The position numbers were made by a program, and so were the translations under genes. From NCBI RefSeq assembly GCF_055900595.2, contig NZ_CM148325.1: a stretch of 64,000 bases of DNA. The stretch is one strand, 5' to 3'. The notes under the pieces were generated by a model. That model had not been told where the DNA came from and ran no database searches. It saw only the letters and a program-made list of their open reading frames with translations. How positions within the stretch are numbered: position 1 is the stretch's first letter; the number at the start of each line of letters is the position of its first letter. Below, piece by piece: positions 48,136 through 51,692 of this stretch.

Positions 48136-49296
48136 TTATGCCGGATCGACTGGTACCACATTCTCGCTTGGGTAACAGCCCAGGACTTTCATCGAGCGAG
48201 TGATTTCACCTAGCTCTTTCAACGCCTGTTGCATTTCCGCTGATTCCAGATTGGCCTGAATATCCAGATAAAACATCTCTTCCCACGGGTTTCCGTGAAT
48301 CGGGCGTGATTCCAGACGGGTCATAATCAGACTGTGATTGCGCAGTACCAGCAACGCTTCAACCAGTGCACCAGCATGTTGTCCGGTCGCCATTAACAAC
48401 GTCGTTTTCGCCGGAACCTGGTCAGAAACGTTAATGGCTTTACGTGCCAACACCACAAATCGGGTGAAGTTTTGTCGCTGATTCGCTTCAATACGCTCCA
48501 GTACCTGCAAACCGTACAAAGTGCCGCCAGCTTCGCTTCCCAACGCAGCAACATGCGGTGATTTTGCCTGTGCAACCTTTTCCATTGCCGCAGACGTACT
48601 TTCGGTATATTCAATCTTCCAGTGCGGATAACGATTAAGGAATTTGCTGCATTGCTGGAATGGCTGCGGATGGCTGTAGACCGTATTGATGGCGGATAAA
48701 TCAGTAGTGCCGGAGACCAACAAACAATGATCGATAGTTAACGTCATCTCGCCAACAATCGACAAACTGGTATGTTGCAGCAGATCGTAAACGTCGTTTA
48801 TGGCACCGGAGCTGGTATTTTCAATCGGTACGACGGCATAGTCGGCCTGGCCGGTTTCCACCTGATTAAAAATATCGGCAAATTTGGCGCAGCCACTTTC
48901 AATGAATTGCTCAAAGTGACGCGCAGCGTACTGACGAGCGGCAAGATGTGAATAGGAGCCTTTGGGGCCGAGAAAAGCGATGCGTGCTGAGTGCGGATTA
49001 ATTTGATTGAGATGTTGCTGGAGCAGTGCCTGCTGAGTTAATACGGAATCTTCAATGATGAGCTGGAACAGGCGAGTAATGTAATGGGCGTCCAGATGGT
49101 GCGCTTTACCGAGCGTAATTAATCTTTCCAGCAAATCGCGTTCGCGATCAATATCACGTACCGGGCGATGAGAGAGCAGTTTGGCTTTTCCCACCTCGAC
49201 GGCCAGTTCGCGCCGCTCTGCCAGTAATGCTAATAATTTTTCATCCAGCGCGCTGATTTTCTCTCGCAGCGCCAGTAACGGGTTTTCCGATGTCAT
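48136..49296 (-). CDS. pheA: Bifunctional chorismate mutase / prephenate dehydratase PheA
   Basis: 386-aa ORF with C-terminal ACT domain. Confidence 0.9.
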
Positions 49297-49308: not shown

Positions 49309-49337
49309 TTGTTATCAATAAAAAAGGCCCCCCGGTT
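49309..49337 (-). terminator. pheA attenuator terminator
   Basis: Minus strand GGCCTCCCAAACCGGGGGGCC hairpin then TTTTTT, between pheL and pheA. Confidence 0.75.
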
Positions 49338-49394
49338 TGGGAGGCCTTATTGTTCGTCTTCGCATTCTGTTTCACACGACGAAACGCCTCCCAT

Positions 49395-49442
49395 TCAGGG
49401 GAAGGTAAAAAAGAATGCGAAGAAAAACGGTGTGTGTTTCAT
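49395..49442 (-). CDS. pheL: pheA leader peptide PheL
   Basis: Hand-read 15-codon ORF [15 protein letters not shown] containing seven Phe codons. Confidence 0.85.
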   Translation of the reverse strand: [15 protein letters not shown]

Positions 49443-49494
49443 GTTTGTTTCCTTAAGTGACTTCAGTACAGTACCCGTACTGTTTTCACGCTGT

Positions 49495-49521
49495 CAACAA
49501 AAAACGCGCCCGAAGGCGCGT
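49495..49521 (-). terminator. Rho-independent terminator of raiA
   Basis: Minus strand ACGCGCC-TTCG-GGCGCGT hairpin followed by a T-run. Confidence 0.7.
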
Positions 49522-49545
49522 TGGCGATACACTCAATATAAAGGA

Positions 49546-49941
<396 letters not shown>

Positions 49942-50146
49942 TCAAAATGTGTGATGGAAATCTCATAATTTTGTCACTTTTTGTCAACGAATCTTTTTTG
50001 TGAGAAATCGCAGGAAGAGGTGTTTTTTTACTTGAGGAATATCTCAAAGCGAGCCATATTTGATGAGATCGATAGTGACTAAATCGCTTCAGTTTCACAA
50101 CTAACAGAATAAAAAAACGGCAGCTCAAGGCTGTAATGCCAGTCAG

Positions 50147-50858
50147 TTAAGCAACTGACTGGCTCTTTTTCGGGGCTGTGGGGTATTTCCAGGGCCTCTC
50201 CTTTACCACTCTCGGGAAGGCCCTTTCCCTTCTTGTCGGTAATTTCACTGGTTGTCCCATACTTGCAAGATCGCGCATCAGCTCCGGTATACGTCCCGGT
50301 GAAGCGCATGGCGTCCGTCATCGACGTCAGCAGATGGCTGGTCAGTTCCATCTGGCAGACCATTTTGACCTGCGGGTAGAGCGCCGGGTTCTCGGCATGT
50401 GTCTGGCGGGGGAAGGCTGCATCGTTCTCTGGTGTATCCGGTGTGCGCCAGAACACACCATCGATGGCCAGCAGGGTCAGGCCGCACCAGTGCGGATGCA
50501 GCGTGGCGTTATGCCAGAGCTGCGCTGTTTTCGTGAACACGCGTCGGACAGCCTCACTTCCCAGGCGCTGGCGGGCCTGAATAACGGCACTGGGGGCAAC
50601 GAAGGGGCGATTGCCTGGCAGCATGATGTCCAGGCGATTCACAATCTGGTGAAGAGGTTCTTTACGCTCAAGCGCCATGCCAACAATACACCAGACCATC
50701 ATTTCGAGGGGAAGACGGCGCTTGCGTAGCGTTACAGTACCTGATTCGGCAAGGCAACGAGAGATGAGTTCGGGGTCGAGGTAATCCCCCAGAAAAGTCA
50801 GTGGGTTACGCAGAGAATCGTAACGGGATACCAAATCAAGGGCCTGTCCAATGAGCAT
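50147..50858 (-). pseudogene. IS4 transposase (InsG-like) pseudogene, two internal deletions with frameshift
   Basis: N-terminal ~185 aa match recalled IS4 transposase, then a jump at a repeated HLLT motif; the IS4 C-terminus (PELMRDLASMGQPVKLPTRRERAFPRVVKERPWKYPTAPKKSQSVA*) is present in another frame ending inside the terminal IR. Confidence 0.7.
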
Positions 50859-50909
50859 AAATAAATATCCTCCGGCATAGCCGGAGGTTTTTCAAATGCG
50901 CCTGTAAGG

Positions 50910-51625
50910 CTCTGTTACCAGCCGCGCCCTAACAGGCGCATACGATCTGACATTTGCATTCAACTTCGTTACTTACGGCCCGTAAACGGGCTGCCCGGAT
51001 ATGGAATCGATAACTGCTCCCCCATTTTATCCTCTTCAAGCTGGTGCTTTATGTAGTCCTGTATCTTCGCCGTGTTCTTACCCACCGTATCGACATAGTA
51101 CCCTCGGCACCAGAACTCCCTGTTTCTGTATTTGAATTTCAAATCCCCAAACTGCTCGTAAAGCATCAGACTGCTTTTCCCTTTCAGATATCCCATAAAG
51201 CCGGATACGCTCATTTTGGGTGGGATTTCCACAAGCATATGGATATGATCTGCGCAGCACTCTGCTTCCAGAATCCGTACGCTTTTCCACTCACACAGCT
51301 TTCTCAAAATACTGCCTATCGCCCTACGCTTCTCTCCGTAAAACGCCAGTCTTCGGTATTTCGGCGCAAAAACTATGTGATATTTACAGTTCCAGCGGGT
51401 GTGCGCTAAGCTCTTTTCGTCCCCCATTGGGACCCCCTTTTGATTTCTTGTTTGACACTTGCAGTTGCCAGACCGCAAGGTGTTTTAACAAATCAAAAGG
51501 GGTTTTAATAACTGGCTCAAAGCTGAAAGCTTTCCGGAACCCCCAGCCTAGCTGGGGGTTTTCTGTGCACAAAAAAATCCGGAAACGAGTGAGCGTTTCC
51601 GGATTCTTACACAGCCACTGAATCG
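50910..51625 (-). mobile_element. IS200-like element nested in the IS4 5' region (approximate boundaries)
   Basis: Contains the Y1 transposase gene plus IS200-type hairpins (TCCGGAAACG..CGTTTCCGGA + T-run and CCCCAGC-CTAG-GCTGGGG) upstream of tnpA; ends estimated, not mapped. Confidence 0.5.
50969..51427 (-). CDS. tnpA: IS200/IS605-family Y1 (HUH) transposase TnpA
   Basis: ORF 50969..51478; start at MGDEKSLAHTRWNCKYHIVFAPKYRR gives 152 aa with HUH motif (ADHIHMLVEIPP) and catalytic Tyr region. Confidence 0.85.
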   Translation of the reverse strand: MGDEKSLAHTRWNCKYHIVFAPKYRRLAFYGEKRRAIGSILRKLCEWKSVRILEAECCADHIHMLVEIPPKMSVSGFMGYLKGKSSLMLYEQFGDLKFKYRNREFWCRGYYVDTVGKNTAKIQDYIKHQLEEDKMGEQLSIPYPGSPFTGRK

Positions 51626-51692
51626 GTCAACTGATCCTTAACTGATCGGCATTACAGCTCAAGGGCTGCCGTTTTTTTATTTCAATCTTCTG

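Follow-up and report, generated by a model that had tools for sequence, protein, structure and literature searches.

The threonine codon-4 allele of the pheL leader peptide in an Escherichia coli genome

The pheL element analysed here is almost certainly a normal Escherichia coli pheL-pheA transcription attenuator, carrying the species-typical and ancestral Thr4 (ACA) allele of the leader. It lies in a stretch of 64,000 nucleotides (hereafter the window) of contig NZ_CM148325.1 (RefSeq assembly GCF_055900595.2), for which a first-pass annotation had reported a pheL with Thr instead of the K-12 Ile at codon 4 and had taken this residue for a strain marker. The difference from K-12 is borne out by translation and codon-by-codon comparison, and the marker reading falls: Thr4 is almost uninformative for strain identity because ACA/Thr is the majority allele in E. 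coli and is also the state of four other Escherichia species. Both this form of the peptide and the leader RNA have existing entries, RefSeq WP_001386991.1 and Rfam RF01859. We accord the Thr4 finding very little biological weight and regard it as ordinary natural variation. Its lesson is one of reference bias: at this position K-12 departs from the species norm, and a sequence that 'differs from K-12' is not thereby unusual.

The pheL leader and its attenuator

Read on the minus strand from 49442 to 49395, the leader opens with ATG AAA CAC ACA CCG, continues through TTT TTC TTC, GCA, TTC TTT TTT and ACC, and closes with TTC CCC TGA, an ending that places it in the UUC_CCC_UGA group of enterobacterial pheL leaders. 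Translation of the plus strand of 49395-49442 gave no sensible product. Seven of the codons in the ORF encode Phe (FFF-A-FFF-T-F) and the start of pheA is found 98 nt past the pheL stop, in agreement with the group delineated by Gurvich et al. 2011 (a short ORF upstream of pheA that has, within 60 nt, five or more Phe codons in frame, of which two or more are neighbours). A query of 311 nt around pheL found a match in 5,425 of 5,426 complete E. coli genomes, where the matching positions are annotated as raiA, Phe leader region/pheL and pheA. The same 311 nt are 100% identical to NZ_CP098223.1, in which the ORF is annotated as pheL (WP_001386991.1, 'pheA operon leader peptide PheL'). The coordinates of the leader, its neighbours and its sequence differences are collected in Table 1.

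The leader RNA was recognised by cmscan as RF01859 over the full model (positions 1-125 of 125), with a score of 132.2 bits (E=2.1e-25) against a gathering score of 55. Its predicted full-length fold has an energy of -51.7 kcal/mol (z = -5.6 for the window; about -5 to -6 versus shuffles for both alleles) and contains both the 1:2 hairpin and the terminator, the latter with a predicted energy of -18.6 kcal/mol. By masking region 1 (as if occupied by a ribosome halted at the Phe codons) and leaving out region 4, we obtained a predicted 2:3 antiterminator of -23.3 kcal/mol. An intrinsic terminator between pheL and pheA is thus predicted together with alternative antiterminator and pause structures, the arrangement that marks the group of Gurvich et al. 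Together with the Phe-codon runs, the ending and the position upstream of pheA, these structures give the window all the defining features of the enterobacterial UUC_CCC_UGA pheL group (PMC3082878) and of RF01859.

Ribosome-mediated attenuation of pheA, in which read-through rises when charged tRNA-Phe becomes limiting, is described as established for K-12 in Gurvich et al. (PMC3082878), and the near-identity of the two leaders leads us to infer the same mechanism for the window. A ribosome would translate the seven Phe codons of pheL ahead of pheA; with Phe-tRNA scarce it would stall on these codons and the 2:3 antiterminator would form, while a ribosome that runs to the UGA stop would allow the 3:4 terminator to form before pheA.

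Table 1. Positions of the pheL-pheA leader elements, neighbouring genes and sequence differences in the window
Feature	Position	Strand	Details	Basis
pheA	48136..49296	-	bifunctional chorismate mutase/prephenate dehydratase; leader-regulated gene	Pfam CM_2 + PDT; annotation in matching genomes
Phe leader RNA (Rfam RF01859)	49318..49443	-	pause hairpin 1:2, antiterminator 2:3, terminator 3:4	cmscan
Attenuator intrinsic terminator	49324..49348	-	AAGGCCTCCC-AAACC-GGGGGGCCTT then T-run; 10-bp GC-rich hairpin	terminator scan
Terminator loop base	49335	-	window C (AAACC); K-12 T (AAAUC)	alignment
pheL	49395..49442	-	phe operon leader peptide ORF; 15 codons + TGA	translation; annotation in matching genome
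Codon 4 SNP, second base	49432	-	window C, ACA (Thr); K-12 T, ATA (Ile); column 129 of the 311-nt alignment	
Upstream base, third K-12 difference	49464	-	window G, K-12 A; 22 nt upstream of pheL ATG; column 97 of the 311-nt alignment	alignment
-35 hexamer of pheL-pheA promoter	49492..49497	-	TTGACA	read from sequence
raiA terminator	49503-49522		adjoins pheL promoter	terminator scan
raiA	49546..49887	-	neighbour upstream	Pfam Ribosomal_S30AE; annotation
Truncated IS4-family transposase gene	50079-50858	-		Pfam Nterm_IS4
IS200/IS605-type tnpA	50969-51478	-		Y1_Tnp

Codon 4 in E. coli and its relatives

For the comparison with K-12 we fetched the pheL of MG1655 (NC_000913.3, 2737599-2737646; b2598, NP_417089.1) and aligned it over the 311 nt. 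The two share the gene order raiA-pheL-pheA-tyrA, the TTC_CCC_TGA ending, every stem, the predicted folding energies and 47 of the 48 bases of the ORF, the single exception being codon 4, which in K-12 is ATA and not ACA. The K-12 peptide given in the first-pass annotation is the one that NC_000913.3 encodes, and its statement that the run of Phe codons is intact holds down to the choice of codon at all seven. Outside the ORF, K-12 departs from the window at two further bases of the leader region (A versus G at 22 nt upstream of the start codon and U versus C in the terminator loop), neither of them mentioned in the first-pass annotation, which are taken up below.

Allele counts were made with 35-nt queries centred on the SNP, searched against the 5,426 complete E. 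coli genomes with a 28-nt megablast word, and since the other allele is unable to seed a word of this length, the number of matches approximates the number of carriers. At codon 4 we counted ACA/Thr in 3,993 of the 5,426 genomes (74%) and ATA/Ile in 1,392 (26%), percentages that, like those given below, describe the database rather than nature, as laboratory derivatives of K-12 and clinical lineages are over-represented among the complete genomes. The other 41 genomes have different variants (e.g., ACG in EC42405) or no match. Exact matches to a 62-mer at the same site were found in 3,560 genomes for the window allele and in 1,383 for the K-12 allele. Among the carriers of ACA/Thr are O157:H7, UTI89 and BL21, all of them annotated with WP_001386991.1 and hence with a peptide identical to that of the window, and ATA/Ile is carried by the K-12 derivatives MG1655 and XL1-Blue as well as by the ETEC strain H10407. 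The pheL of Shigella flexneri 2a has the same nucleotide sequence as that of K-12, according to Gurvich et al. 2011 (PMC3082878). Judged by these counts, it is the K-12 Ile that is the marker, and Thr tells almost nothing about strain identity.

The wider variation of the leader was assessed by a scan of the GTDB species, each represented by a single genome, for loci built like pheL, with codons 3 and 4 left free; it yielded 116 loci (Enterobacterales species). P5, the Phe codons and T13 are invariant across these loci by construction, as the search pattern fixed them; the pattern placed no constraint on Ala9 or on the C-terminal Phe-Pro, which are nevertheless near-invariant. The residues found at codon 4 are T, L, V, I, F, Q, H, A and S (at least nine amino acids, through 23 codons) and codon 3 is as variable; elsewhere the peptide is constant. 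The free variation of codons 3 and 4 is in line with Gurvich et al. 2011 (PMC3082878), who state that all pheL positions vary save the AUG, the regulatory Phe codons and UUC_CCC_UGA.

All four non-coli Escherichia recovered in the scan have Thr at codon 4, namely E. albertii (ACT), E. whittamii (ACG), Escherichia sp. E1V33 (ACG) and Escherichia sp. MOD1-EC7003 (ACA), so that the K-12 Ile would be a derived minority state. The most parsimonious scenario on these sequences is that Thr is ancestral in Escherichia and that the K-12 ATA derives from ACA by one C-to-T transition. This polarity rests on the four Escherichia species, because the loci returned by the scan include none from Salmonella, E. 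fergusonii or E. coli itself, whose sequence is an exact fit to the search pattern; the collection of species scanned thus seems to have gaps, and absence from it should not be over-read.

Two of the loci deserve separate mention. In Erwinia rhapontici H1 (around 2185) pheL is longer than 15 codons and has an extra FFT unit, giving an 18-residue peptide. A pheL of enterobacterial type was also encountered in CACSKA010000005.1, labelled Chryseobacterium sp. 18061 (Bacteroidota), which is probably a mislabelled or contaminated assembly.

Regulatory bearing of the codon 4 difference

The expectation of the first-pass annotation that regulation is probably unchanged accords with our results. A structural effect of the leader SNPs was sought in the full-leader, antiterminator and terminator folds and no change was found, the dot-bracket structure and energy of the full leader being identical between the window and K-12, and the antiterminator and terminator energies being the same for both alleles. 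In the predicted fold codon 4 is unpaired, in a 5' segment that lies outside all stems, with stem 1 beginning 4 nt after it. As it is thus located 5' of stem 1 and before the regulatory Phe codons, and belongs to the pair of codons (3 and 4) that evolve freely, we infer that the Thr/Ile difference would be effectively neutral for regulation. A bearing of codon 4 on the +1 frameshift at CCC_UGA was also considered. Gurvich et al. (PMC3082878) regard this frameshift as incidental and report that its wild-type level is reached once the three codons preceding CCC_UGA are wild-type; the only further effect that they report (2-fold) is that of Pro at position -10 (codon 5), codon 4 being position -11.

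Two other readings of the difference were weighed against this one. A one-base difference in a short region with many T runs might raise the suspicion of an error in sequencing or assembly, yet the change is a substitution at a site without a homopolymer, the region around it is identical to NZ_CP098223.1 over its whole length, and the recurrence of the ACA-bearing 35-mer in 3,993 independent complete genomes rules such an error out, so that we give this reading practically no credence. The other concerns the K-12 codon. AUA is rare in E. coli and is read by a minor tRNA-Ile, and in K-12-type strains it could slow the leading ribosome before stem 1, altering its arrival at the Phe codons or the release of the paused polymerase and leading either to a different basal expression of pheA or to a weak isoleucine/tRNA-Ile2 input. 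The geometry of the leader would permit this, as stalling at codon 4 would leave a ribosome extending onto the start of stem 1, and basal pheA expression does depend on the behaviour of the ribosome on pheL, according to PMC3082878. Set against it are the breadth of amino acids and codons tolerated at this position across the 116 species with no sign of constraint, the fact that both alleles are common among E. coli lineages that are successful, and the lack of any difference between the predicted structures, and we consider a functional role of this kind very unlikely. A small kinetic difference between ACA and ATA in the arrival of the ribosome at the Phe codons is the only functional angle that we find conceivable, and neutrality of the Thr/Ile difference is the reading that we retain.

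Lineage markers in the pheL neighbourhood

For strain typing at this locus, the informative features are the rare loop C, the upstream G and, above all, an IS4/IS200 insertion. The first of these qualifies a further claim of the first-pass annotation, that the attenuator hairpin is intact: all of its stems are indeed unchanged, and the U-to-C substitution in its loop had gone unreported. In exact 61-mer matches the window C at 49335 occurs in 110 genomes (about 2%) and the K-12 T in 4,629; E. albertii and EC42405 have the same C, and it fits the RF01859 consensus at the terminator loop ('Acc'), which the K-12 U does not. The substitution also exchanges one residue (I to T) in the non-conserved +1-frame extension of pheL, an extension argued to be functionless by Gurvich et al. 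2011 (PMC3082878).

At 49464 the window G was matched exactly (61-mer) in 685 genomes (about 13%) and the K-12 A in 4,700, the G being common to E. albertii, E. whittamii and Escherichia sp. E1V33. This base lies 28 nt past the 3' end of the TTGACA hexamer and, going by the position of that hexamer alone, probably falls between the -10 element of the pheL-pheA promoter and its transcription start. A simple consensus scan found no full promoter at pheL, owing to a weak -10; the cloned promoter fragment of Gurvich et al. (PMC3082878) starts at exactly TTGACAGCGTGAAAACAGTAC. Most genomes with the WP_001386991.1 peptide carry the K-12 bases at both 49464 and 49335. The G and the C look like older states retained in a less common E. 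coli lineage. On the minus strand, the opening ~150 nt of pheA show four more substitutions relative to K-12 (49144, 49171, 49216 and 49228).

The interval between bamD and raiA spans ~270 bp in K-12 and ~1.8 kb in the window (49888-51692), the ~1.5 kb of extra sequence being the site of the two transposase genes of Table 1. The bamD-IS-raiA junction was found in 8 of the 5,426 complete E. coli genomes (Z0117EC0005, E400634, E500002, E600003, 100117, 100248, AST85 and E200086), and by this distribution the IS4/IS200 insertion is a real lineage marker of the pheL neighbourhood. Z0117EC0005 is the only genome among the matches listed that is identical to the window across the whole 311-nt leader region. 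The neighbourhood differs again in E. coli EC42405 (NZ_CP043414.1), where codon 4 is ACG (Thr) and a phage integrase gene (1-56), not raiA, stands directly upstream of pheL, which suggests a prophage or island in the raiA-pheL interval.
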